A stretch of 64,000 bases of DNA from a virus (taxonomy: Duplodnaviria > Caudoviricetes): IMG/VR virus record IMGVR_UViG_2897842695_000001, positions 31,652-95,651 of that record, one strand, 5' to 3'. The number at the start of each line of letters is the position of its first letter. Position 1 is the stretch's first letter. A program made the position numbers and the translations under genes. This document shows, piece after piece, positions 29,571 through 52,753 of the stretch. The notes under the pieces were generated by a model that was given only the letters and a program-made list of their open reading frames with translations, had not been told where the DNA came from and made no database searches.

Positions 29571-32432
29571 TTACTCCAGATCTGCACTTTGACGTTGCAG
29601 CGAACGGTCATTGAAGTTATTCGGGATGCTGCCGCTAGACTTGGCCGCTGCTGCTGGTGTGCTTTGGCTAGCTGGGCGTGAAGCTCTTTGAATAACGGTT
29701 GTTGTTGAACGGCTATCACTGCCGGATTGCTTGATAGCTTCGATGGACTCTTTATCGAGTTTCACGGTTTGAGGTGTGTCGCTGGCGCGTAGCTCTGCTG
29801 CGGTTTTCTGCGAGGCAATATCACTAACGCGTTCATTGGATGTAACCTTGGTTGCGTTCTTGGCTACGCTGGTGTGCTTCTCGTTTTGTTTGATCTGTTC
29901 GGAGGCGATCTGAGAGGCAAGATCCTTATGGTTCGAGTTAGTTTCTTGCTTAGTGGTTTTTTCGCTGGTGGTAGCAGTAGAACGGGCCAAATCAGCGGAA
30001 TGCGTATCTACAAATCGAGCGTTTGTAACAGTCACTTGCTCTGCGGCTTTGCGGCTGGCGATCTCTTTATCGATAGCAGCGATCTGGTCGGCTTTTTTGT
30101 CTGGCGAGTACACCTGACCTAGTTCTGGATGCTGAATCATGCCTGACGTATCCATACCTAGCTCATTCGCTACACGCTCACGCTCTGCATTGGTTCGCTC
30201 GTTCTTGCGATCCACGCGTGCGTAGGCGCTAGCAAAGCTGGTGTTTTTCTCGCTAGCTAACTTCTCGACCTCATCCATGTTCACGCGATCTGAGTTCTTA
30301 GAATCCAGTTCACGCATGGTTTGAGTGTCGTTAGTCTCTTTGGCCGTGTGGTATGCCTCGGCGTTTTTCTCGTACTTCGAGTCGTTCTGGCTTTCGGTTT
30401 CCTTAGTCGATTTAGTGTCACCACCAAATAGGCCATAGATACCCTTAGCCATATCACCCGAATCAAAGCTCAATGCTTCTTTTGCACCATCAAAACCAAA
30501 TGCACCCAAGGCCGAACCAAGCAGACCCGCACCACCACTTACCAAGCCACCAAGATCAAGAACATTGGCAAGGGCCATCGAGCTTTTTTGTCCAGTCGTC
30601 GCCTCTTGGCCGTCTTTGAGGTTGAATACCTCTTTCTGCTTTTCGGTATCCGTAAAGCCACTGATTGCGTCATAGGCCATTAGTGCCGGTGCAAGGAATG
30701 GAACTGCTTTACCAGCAATTGAGCCAACCTTTGATAGCCCACGGAATGCGCCACCAGCCATTGATAAGCCTTTTGAGCCAACACCTTTGATGGCATCACC
30801 CGCACCAGACAAAACCGACTTAAAGCGACCACGGCCAGCTTTACGCATGCGGCCACCTCTGCGGCCCTTACGTCCTTTGCGGTCGAACAAGTCACCAGCA
30901 AGATCCATTAAGCCGCCACCCGCACCCTCTGGCGCGTTCGCCTTGGTTGCGGTTAAGAGTTCATCGAGCTTGTCTAGTAGTGCATCGTTGTTCTTGTCTT
31001 GAGCAACGCTGTTTTCTTTTAGGACTTCGAGCGTATTAGCTTGGTAGCTCTGCTGCTTAGTCTTGGAAATTAACCCGCTGCCGTGAGTATTGCTTGATGT
31101 AGAAACATGATTAGCGGTTTGACGAACGGTGTTATTAACGCGCTCAACACGATCGCGAGATACAGTGCTATTAGCGGTAGTGAAAAGGCTAGAAACGCTA
31201 GCTCTTTGCGATTGTTTTTCACGGTTAGTTTCCTTAGCTACTGGAGCATTATTGCCACCAGCGATACCAGCGCGATCGTCGCGACGATTAGAACCGTTGC
31301 GCTCACTAGCTGTTGGTAAAGTTCGGTCCTCAACTTCCGCTGCTGAATCCTTTGTCGCTGAAATTGATTCATGCGTTACCCCTTGAGTTGCCGTTACAGA
31401 TTGTTGGTCCTGCGAATCATTGGCCGGTTCGCCGGTATCAGTTTCGCTAGGCTTAAAGCCAAATAGCTTGCCTAGCTTTGAACCCTTGAATGATTCAAAG
31501 CGCTCTTTGCTTTGCTCAAAGTTGGCGGCTGTTTCCTCGGTTAAGTGATACAGCTCTTTTGCTGAATAGAAGAATGAGCCACCAGCTGCCGCCCCTGCTG
31601 CATCGGTCGCGTCGTTCTCGTCTTTCAGTGCTGCCGTGGCCTTATCAACCACCAGCTGTTTTAAGCTAGAACCAAGCTTTGCAAACACACTGGTTTGCTC
31701 GCTGGTTTCGTCAGCAAGGCGCTCGGTTTCACGTTCCTTGTTGGTTTGCTCTGCGGTTTTGTATGCGGCCTGTTCTTTCTTGCTGGCGTAACGGCCATCA
31801 CTTCTGCGTAGCTTTCCGTTCGCATCTTTCCAGTAGCCATCAAAATCGCTTAAACCGTCTCTAACGGCCTTTTCGACTTTATCCGGCATATCATCAAGTG
31901 ATGAGGTATCAACGGCCTCTGCGGTCGTTTCTGATTGCTCAACGTTGACGATTACTGGCTGGCTTTTCTGTTTCTGAGTCTGGCGAACAACCCCCTTGTT
32001 TTTTGGTTTTGGTTCGCTCGCTAGTGGCTCTTGCTCTTGTTCCAGCTTGTCAGCAATAGACGTGATACCGGCTTGAATTGGCTTTTGCTCGGTAGCGGTA
32101 GACTCTGCCGCTGGCTGCTCCCCTTTTTCTTTAGGTGCGCCAAATGACAGCTCAATTTCGCCGCTTCGATTAGTCTTGCTAGCGGTAGCGCTGCGTTTCT
32201 TTGGCGCTGGCTTGCTAACTGTTAACTGAGCATTCTCGATGCCACTTGTAACCGCCTTTTCAATTGGCTTGGTATCCACTGCCACAACAACCGGTTTTGG
32301 CTTTGCTCGGCCCTGCTGGTTTCCGTCCAATTTCTTGCTGATTTCGGCTAATTTTCTTAGCTCTTTGTCGCTGGCTGTTCGGACAGTTTCGACCACAAGA
32401 GAGAGATCAACTACTTCTTGTTTAGTGTCCAT
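29571..32432 (-). CDS. sit: tape measure protein (Sit-like)
   Basis: Long helical low-complexity protein with Gly/Ala-rich hydrophobic block, between pmgB and pmgA. Confidence 0.75.
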   Translation of the reverse strand: MDTKQEVVDLSLVVETVRTASDKELRKLAEISKKLDGNQQGRAKPKPVVVAVDTKPIEKAVTSGIENAQLTVSKPAPKKRSATASKTNRSGEIELSFGAPKEKGEQPAAESTATEQKPIQAGITSIADKLEQEQEPLASEPKPKNKGVVRQTQKQKSQPVIVNVEQSETTAEAVDTSSLDDMPDKVEKAVRDGLSDFDGYWKDANGKLRRSDGRYASKKEQAAYKTAEQTNKERETERLADETSEQTSVFAKLGSSLKQLVVDKATAALKDENDATDAAGAAAGGSFFYSAKELYHLTEETAANFEQSKERFESFKGSKLGKLFGFKPSETDTGEPANDSQDQQSVTATQGVTHESISATKDSAAEVEDRTLPTASERNGSNRRDDRAGIAGGNNAPVAKETNREKQSQRASVSSLFTTANSTVSRDRVERVNNTVRQTANHVSTSSNTHGSGLISKTKQQSYQANTLEVLKENSVAQDKNNDALLDKLDELLTATKANAPEGAGGGLMDLAGDLFDRKGRKGRRGGRMRKAGRGRFKSVLSGAGDAIKGVGSKGLSMAGGAFRGLSKVGSIAGKAVPFLAPALMAYDAISGFTDTEKQKEVFNLKDGQEATTGQKSSMALANVLDLGGLVSGGAGLLGSALGAFGFDGAKEALSFDSGDMAKGIYGLFGGDTKSTKETESQNDSKYEKNAEAYHTAKETNDTQTMRELDSKNSDRVNMDEVEKLASEKNTSFASAYARVDRKNERTNAERERVANELGMDTSGMIQHPELGQVYSPDKKADQIAAIDKEIASRKAAEQVTVTNARFVDTHSADLARSTATTSEKTTKQETNSNHKDLASQIASEQIKQNEKHTSVAKNATKVTSNERVSDIASQKTAAELRASDTPQTVKLDKESIEAIKQSGSDSRSTTTVIQRASRPASQSTPAAAAKSSGSIPNNFNDRSLQRQSADLE

Positions 32433-47005: not shown

Positions 47006-48153
47006 TTAACGATCCTCTCTAACTTGCTCGGTGTAACGTTCATCATTTTGGCAAAGTCTGTTATCGCTTCTTGCTTAGATTTGCCTTGGAGCTTGTAACC
47101 GTCATGGAAGTTCTGGAAGCCCATTTTCAGCATGTCGTTTAGCTCTTTAATCTTGTTGCTTTGCTTGCGGATCTTTCTCGCTTGGCGCTTAGTGCGTTCG
47201 CTTTCGCGTTTTTGTTGGTCCAGCTTGCGTTGCATGGCCTTTTGAGAGCGCATGTACTTGTCATGTTCTCGACGGGCCGCGTCTTGGTCTACTTTGGTTT
47301 TGCGGTTCTTGGCCGCTGCTTTGCGTTCTTGTTCGTTGAGGAAGTACGCCTTGTTATCGCTGCCATAGCTCACGCGTTTAGCTTGCTGCTTCATCTGCGT
47401 GGCTAAAATGCGTTGCCATGCTAATGACTGGAGCATTGTTGTGGCTTTAAGAACGTGCTTACACGCAACGCCCGATAACTCAGGGTTTTTAATCTTAGGG
47501 AACGCAAACTCTTTCGGTGGAGCTAAACAGTAGTTCCCCATCGTCGCTAAATAGCGATACCAATATTGGTGACGGCCACAGTCGCAATCAAAAGAGATAC
47601 GGCCAGCGCATGCCAGCTGTACCGCCTTGTTGTAATCACCATTAGGCGGCTCTTGTAGTAACTCATCCCACTGCTCGAAACGGACCTTAACGCGGTGATG
47701 TTGGTGCTTGGAAACACTCGAAGCCTTAACGTTTACCAGTGCAACGTTGTTCTTGATGGCGTACAGGTTCGCGCTAGTGATACCCGAACCATCATCAACA
47801 CGGTTATTGGCACGCTTAACGTCGATTTCTCGCGAGTTCTTCACCAGAAAGTGATACGTAACGCCAGCTGTTCGACTGTCGTACTTTTCCTTGTGTCGCT
47901 GTCTGGCCTTATCGAACTTGATTAAGTCGTCTTTGGTAAACCGCTGCCCTTTGGCCTTTTCACCGAGCGCCTTTAACGCCTTGCTGGTGGGATTAGTAAG
48001 CGTGCTTGGTTTTAGCGTGCGCTTGGCATTACGGCGGTTCTTCTTCTGCGCTTGCTCAATCTTGTTAAACAGTTGGTTAAACTGCTTGGCATTGAGGCCA
48101 GCTGAAATATAAGAGCCGTTGTCTGTCTTTTCTGGCGTGAACTTTTTAGGCAT
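47002..48153 (-). CDS. P1 gp25-like protein with SWIM-type zinc finger
   Basis: SFDCDCGRHQYWYRY...GVACKHV. Confidence 0.75.
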   Translation of the reverse strand: MPKKFTPEKTDNGSYISAGLNAKQFNQLFNKIEQAQKKNRRNAKRTLKPSTLTNPTSKALKALGEKAKGQRFTKDDLIKFDKARQRHKEKYDSRTAGVTYHFLVKNSREIDVKRANNRVDDGSGITSANLYAIKNNVALVNVKASSVSKHQHHRVKVRFEQWDELLQEPPNGDYNKAVQLACAGRISFDCDCGRHQYWYRYLATMGNYCLAPPKEFAFPKIKNPELSGVACKHVLKATTMLQSLAWQRILATQMKQQAKRVSYGSDNKAYFLNEQERKAAAKNRKTKVDQDAARREHDKYMRSQKAMQRKLDQQKRESERTKRQARKIRKQSNKIKELNDMLKMGFQNFHDGYKLQGKSKQEAITDFAKMMNVTPSKLERIVK

Positions 48154-49176: not shown

Positions 49177-49830
49177 TTAGTTCGGAATAATTATATCGAA
49201 CTGGCTCAATGGTTCGAGCGATAAACCGAGCATTTCGTACACTTTAACCAGTAACTCCAGCTCTGTTCCATTGTGCTCACTGAATTGCTTTTTACCACCA
49301 TATTTGCCCTTAGCGTGGACCGGTAATAGATCAGGGTACTGCTCGCGCTGCTCCTTTTCCGGCAAAGTGTCATGATGCCAGCAACAAAGCGGCAAAACGA
49401 ACTTGTGCGCGTCAATGCGAGTACGGCCAAACACATGATGCAATGAGACGATCGGATTGTCTCGGCCATGCAGTAAACAGGCAATACATGGAAGCGTACC
49501 GATCTTGTCCATCACCCGTTGTTCTTCTGCTAGGGCCGTGCGGCCTTTTAACCCCTTGGTAGCTTTTCGCTTGGCTGGTGGCTTTGCTGCTTGCTTGGCC
49601 TTTGCCCGTTCGGCCCTCTCTAGCGCCTTTTTCCGTTGCTGCTCTTGGTACTCTGGCGAACAAATCTTAGCTATACGCTGATCCTGCTTCTTCTTGGCCT
49701 TAGCGAGTCGCTTGGCCTTTTCAGCTGGATCTTTCATTTTGGCAATTTGCTTGTCTCTAGCTCGTTGCATGGCCTCTTTTTGCTTAACTCTTTGCCTTTC
49801 TTGCCTCTGCGCTATTGTCAAAGCCATCAA
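49177..49830 (-). CDS. ref: Ref, RecA-dependent HNH nuclease
   Basis: Basic N-terminus, GLKGRT, LPCIAC, SLHH, LPLCCWHH. Confidence 0.9.
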   Translation of the reverse strand: MMALTIAQRQERQRVKQKEAMQRARDKQIAKMKDPAEKAKRLAKAKKKQDQRIAKICSPEYQEQQRKKALERAERAKAKQAAKPPAKRKATKGLKGRTALAEEQRVMDKIGTLPCIACLLHGRDNPIVSLHHVFGRTRIDAHKFVLPLCCWHHDTLPEKEQREQYPDLLPVHAKGKYGGKKQFSEHNGTELELLVKVYEMLGLSLEPLSQFDIIIPN

Positions 49831-49949
49831 AACCCCCTAGTATTCGTGTTGCTCATGTTTCTATTGCTTGTTCAATGGGAACATTAAAGGCTGGCGCTGT
49901 CTGAATATTGCTGTTCAGAGTTTGTTTTGTTTGTTTCGCCAGCCGCAAG

Positions 49950-49971
49950 AAAACCGCCCTAGTGGCGGTTT
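49950..49971. terminator. terminator
   Basis: AAAACCGCC-ctagt-GGCGGTTTT. Confidence 0.7.
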
Positions 49972-49984
49972 TGTTGTATCTGGA

Positions 49985-50212
49985 CTATCGAGAAATAATC
50001 TTAGAGCGTTCAAGCCTTGCTGATACCGGTCGAGAAAGTTCAGACGCATGCCCTACTACTCGACAAATAAACTCAACGCTATCGGGAAACACTTTGTGGG
50101 ATATTGGCTCTAACACATCCGATTTAAGTGTGACCGTTTGATTGTTCTTGATAGCCGTGGCGAACCGGCGAATGGTCGGCATATCATAAAAACGCTTTGT
50201 TACTTCGCGCAT
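49985..50212 (-). CDS. hypothetical protein
   Basis: Overlaps the end of the AphA-like gene. Confidence 0.5.
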   Translation of the reverse strand: MREVTKRFYDMPTIRRFATAIKNNQTVTLKSDVLEPISHKVFPDSVEFICRVVGHASELSRPVSARLERSKIISR

Positions 50213-50697
50213 ACCTCATCTTCCTCAAGATTGCTAATCACAAACTCAAGCTCAACTTTACGGATATTAAGCTCGAACGTTAGACGGGCCGCTAACTGCG
50301 TGCCAGCTGCTTTCTCAATCTGATTTTCTAGTCGCTCGATTTCCTTACCTAATACTTCTCGGCCCTGTTCAAAGTAAGCTTCACAGCCCCCAATGAATTG
50401 CATCACTACAGCTTGGTGTCTGAACGTTTCAAGCTTGTATGGAGTCTCGTTCTTCAATTCGTTGAGCTTTTCTTGGCCCTGTTCGGTTACGTGGTAGATC
50501 TTCGCGTCTGGCTTACCCTCGTTTGGCTTGTGTTCCGCGTATAGGAAAGACTCTTTATCCATACGATTACACTCACGATAGATTTGCTGGTGGCTGGCAC
50601 GCCAAACACACTCATGCTTCATAGACTTAGTTAGTTCATAACCAGTTTTAGGCGATAGTAAAATGTCTTGTAGTAGCGCTACTTGTAAGTGATTCAT
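50200..50697 (-). CDS. PadR-family regulator, AphA homologue
   Basis: TGYELTK, WRASHQQIYRE, PNEGKPDAKIY versus Vibrio AphA TGYDITK, WKASHQQVYRE, PQEGKPDRKVY (recalled). Confidence 0.88.
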   Translation of the reverse strand: MNHLQVALLQDILLSPKTGYELTKSMKHECVWRASHQQIYRECNRMDKESFLYAEHKPNEGKPDAKIYHVTEQGQEKLNELKNETPYKLETFRHQAVVMQFIGGCEAYFEQGREVLGKEIERLENQIEKAAGTQLAARLTFELNIRKVELEFVISNLEEDEVCAK

Positions 50698-50713: not shown

Positions 50714-51175
50714 TTAGATTTGTTGCCAAATGTCGCTGGTTGATTGGTCCTTGAACCCGTGACAGACGTACTCAATATCACTTGAGTAGTGCGTTAATTT
50801 CCCTTTCAACGCCTTTTTATTGCGGTTATGCCAGTGTTCGTAACCGGCGCTAAACGCGTACTGGTTGTTGCTGTAGTCTGCATAATGGAGATCTGCACCA
50901 TTACGCGCCTCATTAACACCAGCGGCCCAACTTGCTAAGAAGTCCTCGCGCTCGATGATCTTCAACACTTGCCTTTCATCGTCCTGTACTGCGAGTAGTT
51001 GGATAATTCCAAGCGCTTGCATCTTGTCGATTACGGTTGTGTCAAAGTACCCAATGTAGATCTCATCGTGCGGGATATACTCGATTTGAGGCGGTGTTTC
51101 GTAGGCCGTACCGTCGAGCGGTAGCGCCTCCATTAACTCCACCAGCAAGCTGAGTTGCTTTTTGGGTATTGGCAT
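50714..51175 (-). CDS. hypothetical protein
   Basis: ORF track; in the leftward early operon. Confidence 0.65.
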   Translation of the reverse strand: MPIPKKQLSLLVELMEALPLDGTAYETPPQIEYIPHDEIYIGYFDTTVIDKMQALGIIQLLAVQDDERQVLKIIEREDFLASWAAGVNEARNGADLHYADYSNNQYAFSAGYEHWHNRNKKALKGKLTHYSSDIEYVCHGFKDQSTSDIWQQI

Positions 51176-51425
51176 TCTTCAAAGCCTCACTTAATTGGTT
51201 TACAAATTGAGCGCAAAACGAAAAACGAGACAGCTCTTTGCGTATTCTTTCGGCGTTTGCGTCATTTACAAATGCCTCTGCAATTTCGATGCTTTCAACG
51301 TTCCACGACACACAGATATTCCCAACAGGACCGATCGCCTTGTCTATACCAAGCACGATTAATACACCGTCATTTCTCAAAATGACCGTATCGCCTTTGC
51401 TGGTAGGGATTTTTCTATAAGCCAT
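51063..51425 (-). CDS. hypothetical protein
   Basis: First ORF of the leftward early operon; long overlap with the next gene. Confidence 0.5.
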   Translation of the reverse strand: MAYRKIPTSKGDTVILRNDGVLIVLGIDKAIGPVGNICVSWNVESIEIAEAFVNDANAERIRKELSRFSFCAQFVNQLSEALKNANTQKATQLAGGVNGGATARRYGLRNTASNRVYPAR

Positions 51426-51628
51426 GTTTCTATGCTACTCGATAGCTTGTTCGGAATGGTGCGGAATCTATCACAGCATCTAAAAACAATGCAACAGATA
51501 ATTTAATCAACTAGAACAAAGCTGAAACGCAACAATTAAATTTATTGTTCGGAATGGTTTTAATTGCCATCCGACAAAAAAAGCATTATCTTGGCCGCCA
51601 CAAACAAACAAATCTGAGCACATTAAGC

Positions 51629-52057: not shown

Positions 52058-52255
52058 ATGCAAATCCAGCCACTAAAAGCCTTTATTGCTGAGTATTTCA
52101 AAGACCCCGCTGACTTCGCCAATATTCACGGCGTTGAACGAGATTCAGTCTATCGAATGCAGCGTAATGGCGTTTATGCAAGCGGCGACCGCAGCTGTTA
52201 CACGCTTTGGTATCCAAAGAAAGACGGCGGCGACCAACAAAACCTATTTAACTGA
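52058..52255 (+). CDS. small hypothetical protein (possible Cro-like HTH)
   Basis: PADFANIHGVERDSVYRM. Confidence 0.5.
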   Translation: MQIQPLKAFIAEYFKDPADFANIHGVERDSVYRMQRNGVYASGDRSCYTLWYPKKDGGDQQNLFN

Positions 52256-52267
52256 GCATTTCCCCTT

Positions 52268-52753
52268 ATGGCACTACTAACACGGCAAGAAAAACACCAA
52301 GAAATGAGTGATTGTATCGAGCGCTACGAATCATTTATCCAATGCACCAGTGCGTTTAGTTACAGCATTGGTCTGGCTAAAAAAGGTTGGCCCGATGTGG
52401 TTGTAATGAGTGGCAAGTACGCCACCGCTGTAACGCTCATTAACCTATTGGTTGAGCATTGGAATGAGCACGGCGTAGAGCTGGGCCGAAATACTTCTTT
52501 GATACAGTCACCAAAGGGCGAATCCATGCCCGTTTATGTTGCCGCCATACCAATGACTAAACAGCTGGTGGATGAAATCGCAGTACAAACGATGGACTTC
52601 TACAAGTACAACCCGCAGTACGTGAAAAATGAGATCAGCTTTGTGCAACTGTTCTTCCCTGACGAACAAGGCAAGTTACCTTTCGAGGCGGGATTCAATC
52701 CGAGATTCGAACAGCCAGCATTAACAACCGAATTACCTACCGTTACCCATTAA
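52268..52753 (+). CDS. DUF4262-like protein
   Basis: FSYSIGL...GWPDVV; VQLFFPDEQGKLPFE. Confidence 0.7.
   Translation: MALLTRQEKHQEMSDCIERYESFIQCTSAFSYSIGLAKKGWPDVVVMSGKYATAVTLINLLVEHWNEHGVELGRNTSLIQSPKGESMPVYVAAIPMTKQLVDEIAVQTMDFYKYNPQYVKNEISFVQLFFPDEQGKLPFEAGFNPRFEQPALTTELPTVTH

Follow-up and report, generated by a model that had tools for sequence, protein, structure and literature searches.

Does a P1-like phage-plasmid of Vibrio carry its own AphA, the low-cell-density quorum-sensing master regulator of Vibrionaceae, or does the AphA-like protein encoded by this element serve the element itself? The question is raised by a PadR-family gene at positions 50200-50697 (minus strand) of a 64,000-nucleotide stretch of viral DNA, here called the window (positions 31,652 to 95,651 of IMG/VR record IMGVR_UViG_2897842695_000001). 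A preliminary description had proposed that this gene and a Qrr-like small RNA gene 8 kb away on the same element together form a phage low-density module that overrides host quorum sensing.

The window belongs to a circular plasmid of 95,651 bp, identical copies of which are found in Vibrio sp. THAF64, THAF191c and THAF191d, and the virus record is rated 97% complete by IMG/VR. The gene set is that of a P1-like phage-plasmid, with ParA/ParB partition proteins, a 2,244-aa SNF2 protein, portal, head-processing protein and terminase, as well as a small tyrosine recombinase, Ref, baseplate, tail-fibre, holin and amidase genes. Here we present an analysis of the protein, its genomic setting and the Qrr-like RNA, together with the readings of its function that these data favor or disfavor.

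The PadR protein and its relation to AphA

The 165-aa ORF is intact, starts with ATG and has an AGGAA ribosome-binding site 8 nt upstream. Its product matches the Pfam family PadR (PF03551) over residues 14-79 (E 1.6e-11, 44.5 bits against a cut-off of 27) and belongs to phrog_13512 ('transcriptional regulator') by a full-length profile match (residues 2-153 on profile positions 4-163 of 178, E 1.1e-32, 114 bits). No NCBIfam model matched the protein at its own cut-off; in RefSeq the ORF is named 'PadR family transcriptional regulator'. Pfam match and structural model together place the protein in the two-domain subfamily 1 of the PadR family.

The AlphaFold2 model (pLDDT 96.3, built on a 65-sequence alignment) consists of a winged helix-turn-helix at approximately residues 1-88, with helices at 3-14, 19-28 and 36-48 followed by a beta hairpin at 52-70, and a three-helix C-terminal domain at approximately residues 95-164, with helices at 95-101, 106-129 and 134-164 (pLDDT above 90). 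The helical C-terminal domain of about 80 residues is of the dimerisation type, the dimer itself being predicted. Full-length structural matches of the model include 5x11, 1yg2 and 3l9f. In the Foldseek search against the PDB the DNA-bound PadR of B. subtilis (5x11) ranks at the top with TM 0.77-0.79, followed by VanR, and AphA (1yg2) appears at rank 12 with TM 0.76. Because PadR 5x11 and VanR outrank AphA, the fold is that of a generic two-domain PadR protein and does not single out AphA.

The motifs pointed out in the preliminary description (TGYELTK, WRASHQQIYRE, EGKPDAKIY and a C-terminal RLT, the latter within ARLTFELNI) are all present in the protein. Its statement that the protein is close to AphA in recognition helix and wing and divergent in the dimerisation domain is also correct: helix and wing share 11 of 15 and 8 of 12 residues, respectively, with AphA, to which the C-terminal domain cannot be aligned. 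By sequence, the best solved relative is V. cholerae AphA 1yg2 (HMMER, E 5.4e-14), with only residues 15-87 aligning; the N-terminal domains are 35% and the entire proteins 31% identical. Global alignments of the C-terminal domain comprise 8-29 columns against AphA versus 69-76 columns against phage and plasmid relatives, which align across this domain at 22-39% identity. An alignment to AphA that extends through the C-terminal coiled-coil domain is thus not obtained.

An exhaustive HMMER search over 1.84 billion representatives delivered 662 relatives. The motifs W.ASHQQ[IV]YRE and GKPD.K.Y are present in most of the best 150 of these 662 cluster representatives and therefore mark a PadR subfamily instead of being diagnostic of AphA. 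AphA is the sole solved member of the 'ASHQQ' PadR branch defined by these motifs; the protein is a homologue of AphA, as had been described, and resembles it because both belong to this one branch of two-domain PadR proteins. The best matches (P0002-P0005) are full length, share 37-41% identity (E 1e-27 to 1e-25), originate from Vibrio contigs of 30-97 kb and carry the name 'PadR family' only. The true AphA representatives P0052 and P0065, which start with MSLPHVILTVLS, rank approximately 50th to 65th (E about 1e-10) and match the N-terminal part only (residues 15-80 and 15-83 of the query). Among Vibrio sequences, tblastn detected relatives in 94 phage records and 23 plasmids.

For the phylogenetic analysis, chromosomal AphA genes from Vibrio, Photobacterium, Enterovibrio, Grimontia, Veronia and Thaumasiovibrio were included, and 80 of 431 scanned relatives were kept. 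In the IQ-TREE tree of 121 proteins a branch with 98% SH-aLRT support separates the query from all 16 chromosomal AphA proteins. On the AphA side of this branch are the 16 AphA proteins and other chromosomal PadR proteins; on the side of the query are the PadR of a syntenic P1-like plasmid of V. campbellii and the PadR proteins of p0908/pSA7G2-type plasmids. Constraining the query to group with AphA in a 39-row subset cost 92 log-likelihood units and was rejected by the AU test (p-AU 7.8e-46). The preliminary description had itself named a position outside the AphA clade as the outcome contradicting its reading, and this is the position found; by clade placement the protein does not belong to the AphA orthologous group.

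Operon, slot and control region

The padR gene is the third of a leftward operon of four genes with operon-like spacing (p120, the phrog_8101 gene, padR and p75), located between an early-looking divergent operon and ref. The probable first gene, p120 (51063-51425, minus strand), is a 120-aa ORF not listed in RefSeq, which overlaps the next gene out of frame; it occurs at the same position in six related elements with 40-54% identity (tblastn) and has a weak match to phrog_1968 (E 5e-4). The 153-aa phrog_8101 protein (50714-51175, minus strand) has no match in Pfam, and its gene ends 16 nt before the PadR start codon. The 75-aa ORF p75 (49985-50212, minus strand), annotated in RefSeq, shares 13 nt with the end of padR, stop codon included, and translational coupling of the two genes is probable; p75 is conserved at 40-44% identity in two related elements (L004 and L094) and has no family match in PHROGs or Pfam. 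For the operon partners and the divergent operon, Pfam and PHROGs gave no function except DUF4262, and a megablast search of the 5-kb neighborhood against phages gave no match.

The conserved downstream neighbor at 49177-49830 (minus strand) encodes a Ref-like RecA-filament endonuclease (phrog_2321, E 8.6e-54), in RefSeq named 'Ref family recombination enhancement nuclease'. Ahead of it, a G+C-rich hairpin with T-runs on both sides (49939-49983) could close the PadR operon as a terminator acting in both directions. Four RNA libraries of one study (X1-X4) contain a 97-99% identical relative of the 41-53.5 kb stretch in multi-kb contigs on both strands. In all four runs these contigs break at 49846-49958, a weak hint at a terminator; the contigs say nothing on transcription of padR, its strand, level or timing, and DNA carry-over or lytic growth could explain them. 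In the same relative a different sequence of 926 bases stands in place of the 396 bases at 52249-52646, which make up most of the DUF4262 gene, a mosaic swap within the divergent operon.

The order phrog_8101, PadR, small ORF and Ref is kept in seven other P1-like Vibrio elements (L004, L087-L089 and L092-L094), in which synteny continues from ref into three baseplate/tail genes. The phrog_8101 protein is 76-84% identical in six of the seven, the remaining one (L089) being cut just upstream of its PadR; the tail protein shares 61-81% and Ref 47-60% identity with this element. Overall the neighboring genes are 43-84% identical, whereas PadR shares only 34-38%. The PadR proteins found in this slot fall into at least five representative clusters (the query's own, P0002, P0007, P0010 and P0027). 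The slot is thus fixed, its PadR occupant diverges or is exchanged among lineages, and within a P1-like block that is otherwise conserved PadR varies most, which suggests control specific to the element. A swapped occupant would fit, by analogy with immunity regulators, a determinant of element-specific specificity. Host AphA is nearly invariant across the genera of the Vibrionaceae set, and a mimic of AphA would be expected to be equally constrained; the fast divergence of PadR is a poor fit to such a role.

Upstream of the operon lies a divergent control region (51431-51560) which contains, within 130 bp, two exact copies of the box CCATTCCGAAC (51449-51459 and 51547-51557), a palindrome and a candidate promoter. 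The palindrome AACAAT-N7-ATTGTT (51531-51549) is perfect, as is a second one, TCTGAA-N8-TTCAGA (49900-49919), upstream of ref. From their symmetry both are candidate sites for a dimeric regulator; they are not conserved in the nearest syntenic plasmid. Just upstream of the box at 51449-51459, the minus strand reads TGaTAGATT, which may be an extended -10 promoter element.

In its degenerate form YCATTCCGAAC the box occurs nine times in the window, at positions 352, 15057, 18792, 35933, 41012, 42182, 51449, 51547 and 62960, compared to 0.86 expected occurrences. The copies usually adjoin -10-like hexamers, and one is located in the spacer of the Qrr-like promoter. The related elements G001-G003 keep this asymmetric box, which the V. 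campbellii plasmid lacks, and it resembles the dispersed C1 operators of P1. The PadR operon may belong to the regulon of whichever protein reads this box. The site of AphA is ATGCAA-N4-TTGCAT (PMC6855506). With up to three mismatches, 26 such boxes were found in the window versus 42 expected, so that AphA boxes are not enriched; none with fewer than two mismatches was found in the window and none at all in the control region of the operon.

The Qrr-like RNA

The Qrr-like sRNA gene at approximately 42209-42317 (plus strand), recognized in targeted searches, contains a perfect 17-nt Qrr seed (CTAGCCAACTGACGTTG), a sigma70-type promoter (TTGATC-N17-TATACT) and an intrinsic terminator. The presence of a Qrr-like RNA on the element is thereby confirmed, and the remark in the preliminary description that the phage RNA lacks the Qrr 5' region holds as well, as the canonical first (5') stem was not found. 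In targeted searches only, the RNA reaches 20.7 bits with the Rfam Qrr model RF00378 (cut-off 50); a scan of the window at the Rfam gathering thresholds delivered no family, and a whole-window E-value scan missed the RNA. A search for the canonical 21-nt Qrr core with up to three mismatches found nothing in the phage, as the similarity of its RNA to Qrr ends with the 17-nt seed. By blastn the region has no match in plasmids or phages beyond the three identical plasmids.

In the RNA libraries of the 97-99% identical relative a 49-nt insert (42220-42268) is directly flanked by sequencing adapters, with a contig depth of 800-1284 compared to 73-404 for neighboring contigs. The pattern hints at a short, abundant RNA that spans the seed.

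PadR and Qrr seed are not inherited together. The seed is absent from the closest syntenic V. campbellii plasmid, from p0908-type plasmids, and from the seven other P1-like elements in which the PadR slot is kept, which argues against a conserved module of PadR and Qrr. Among 28 other PadR-bearing records RF00378 gave a single notable match (33.5 bits), in the provirus G009; conversely, 13 of 14 viral contigs that contain the exact 16-nt seed encode no PadR relative, G009 being the exception. The check on co-occurrence called for in the preliminary description hence came out negative. We found no paper on a phage-encoded pair of Qrr and AphA.

The 57.9-kb provirus G009 (IMGVR_UViG_2627853925_000001) encodes a Qrr-like RNA with the same seed and a different non-canonical body (L118, 1179-1287), near one contig end, where the DNA may be either phage or host flank. 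Its 175-aa PadR (47070-47576) belongs to the same broad clade as the query and is closest to P0047. Four further IMG/VR virus records of 40-44 kb (G029, G030, G032 and G038; loci L135, L136, L138 and L144) have Qrr matches of 62-74 bits; two of them have direct terminal repeats and are rated 100% complete, and none of the four encodes a PadR of phrog_13512. Qrr genes above the Rfam gathering score thus seem to occur in complete phage genomes.

AphA, which stands in reciprocal repression with LuxR/HapR, is activated at the level of translation by Qrr sRNAs pairing with its mRNA leader. A crude RNAduplex comparison of the seed region of the element's Qrr-like RNA with the segments from -80 to +30 of 146 ORF starts ranked PadR 64th and the first gene of its operon 129th. 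No preferential pairing of the Qrr-like RNA with the PadR operon was seen among these starts.

Possible roles and known systems

With a probability of roughly 0.6, we consider the protein to be the phage's own dimeric PadR regulator of element-specific promoters, representing a lineage of phrog_13512. This reading is based on the family membership, the fold, the placement outside AphA, the synteny, the rapid divergence and the missing linkage to the Qrr-like RNA. As a homodimer, the protein would bind palindromic operators of the element itself, most likely in its own control region at 51.43-51.56 kb and perhaps in the ref promoter region, and would tune phage early and accessory genes instead of standing in for host AphA. 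Besides dimer formation and DNA targets, we infer the direction of regulation and the timing of expression that this role implies. Several points speak against the phage-own reading: the candidate palindromes are not kept in the nearest syntenic plasmid, judged from the sequence recognition helix and wing are so AphA-like that binding to AphA-type host sites is conceivable, the Qrr seed mimic on the same element makes a link to quorum sensing not far-fetched, and the dispersed box may belong to another repressor.

The closest structural matches of the protein, i.e. PadR (5x11, 5y8t) and VanR (5z7b, 6lg2), have the same two-domain build and bind effectors, and different ligands might explain why the C-terminal domain varies between lineages. 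Were the protein a ligand-responsive sensor of this kind, a small molecule bound between the domains would release the operator, as in B. subtilis PadR and VanR, so that a host metabolite or an environmental cue would steer phage gene expression or the choice between lysis and lysogeny. We regard this as unlikely, as no catabolic or efflux gene adjoins padR and as AphA, a member of the same subfamily, is not known to have a small-molecule effector. It is highly improbable that PadR reads the YCATTCCGAAC boxes and thereby serves, like C1 of P1, as the master repressor. In favor are the two boxes on either side of its own control region, the one in the Qrr-like promoter, and a number of boxes that clearly exceeds expectation. 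However, the box lacks symmetry, whereas inverted repeats are the targets of PadR dimers (AphA, 5x11), G001-G003 keep the exact box with a PadR of another lineage (35-37% identical), and the position of P1 c1 next to the terminase genes is filled by a 292-aa gene, outside the window; for these reasons PadR is probably not the box reader. The protein at the c1 position is 49-50% identical in the box-keeping elements and 44% in the box-less one, a difference that is not decisive.

Mimicry of host quorum sensing, in which PadR would bind host AphA boxes and, with the Qrr-like RNA silencing LuxR/HapR, override the density response, appears quite unlikely. It is favored by AphA being the best solved relative by sequence, by the near-identical helix and wing, by the Qrr seed mimic with its own sigma70-type promoter, by the joint occurrence of a non-canonical Qrr-like RNA and a PadR relative in provirus G009, and by the speculation on a quorum-sensing role in PMC13670528. 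Against it stand the rejected grouping with AphA, the subfamily-wide distribution of the shared motifs, the unalignable C-terminal domain, the fastest divergence within its block compared to a nearly invariant host AphA, the lack of co-inheritance with the Qrr seed, the lack of AphA box enrichment on the element and, in the crude RNAduplex comparison, no preferential pairing between the RNA and the PadR operon. Neither an AphA equivalent nor the completion of a quorum-sensing module, as had been proposed, is supported by phylogeny, domain comparison, synteny or co-occurrence. A bolder version is very unlikely: the ASHQQ helix would give all phrog_13512 proteins AphA-like specificity, promoters with the same box would drive both a Qrr seed mimic independent of LuxO and a surrogate of AphA on the phage-plasmid, and derepression would lock the host in the low-cell-density program without autoinducer sensing. 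If PadR did act on AphA targets, the phage would rewrite the density decision of its host and thereby biofilm, virulence and competence; Qrr mimic and AphA surrogate together would represent a two-component viral takeover of Vibrio quorum sensing. Clear negatives were obtained for orthology with AphA and for linkage to the Qrr-like RNA, and the evidence points instead to the phage-own regulator, one more lineage of a widespread, fast-evolving regulator family which is common in Vibrio phages.

That a phage encodes an AphA-like PadR homologue is true and already published, and the protein is another member of the described family. A viral 'aphA' gene was first listed in 2024 (PMC11295528), and a 'prophage-encoded AphA homolog' of Vibrio, prophage.8, belonging to phrog_13512, was described in Environ Microbiome 2026 (PMC13670528; preprint 10.64898/2026.03.26.714470). 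The gene of this homolog lies in an inducible P1-like prophage, with a Ref-like endonuclease on one side and a tail gene on the other. Its product shares 34.8% identity with host AphA, whose fold is similar, and groups in a clade apart from it; a role in quorum sensing or lysogeny is openly speculative (PMC13670528). The present protein shares with it the PHROG, the P1-like Vibrio setting beside Ref-like endonuclease and tail genes, an identity of about 35% to host AphA, the separate clade, the two-domain PadR fold and the predicted C-terminal dimerisation. It differs in representing another lineage of phrog_13512, since syntenic copies are only 34-38% identical, and in the Qrr-seed RNA on its element, which is not reported in PMC13670528.

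Compared to B. subtilis PadR (5x11) and VanR (5z7b), effector-responsive repressors and its best structural matches, the protein has the same combination of winged helix and helical dimerisation domain, and the PadR dimer of B. subtilis binds a palindromic operator; it differs in an identity of only about 20%, in its recognition-helix motif of the ASHQQ type and in the lack of an adjacent detoxification gene. PadR proteins of the p0908/pSA7G2-type Vibrio plasmids (about 80 kb) are located on the same side of the tree, are 34-36% identical over the full length and likewise belong to mobile elements, but their neighborhood differs (integrase, PadR, YejK and DEAD-box helicase, no Ref). With AphA itself the protein shares the subfamily-1 architecture, a near-identical recognition-helix motif (W[KR]ASHQQ[VI]YRE) and the wing motif GKPD.K.Y, whereas, apart from sequence and clade, it is set apart by its location on a phage-plasmid instead of a chromosomal locus, by the lack of a sign of Qrr control in the crude pairing comparison and by its fast divergence compared to the high conservation of AphA. 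Two other viral records encode PadR proteins nearer to AphA than the query: a 124.9-kb provirus (L105 in G019) with a PadR 41% identical to AphA over 172 aa, which is located on the AphA side of the tree (P0085), and a 115.5-kb viral record (L104 in G018) with a PadR 46% identical to AphA over 125 aa.
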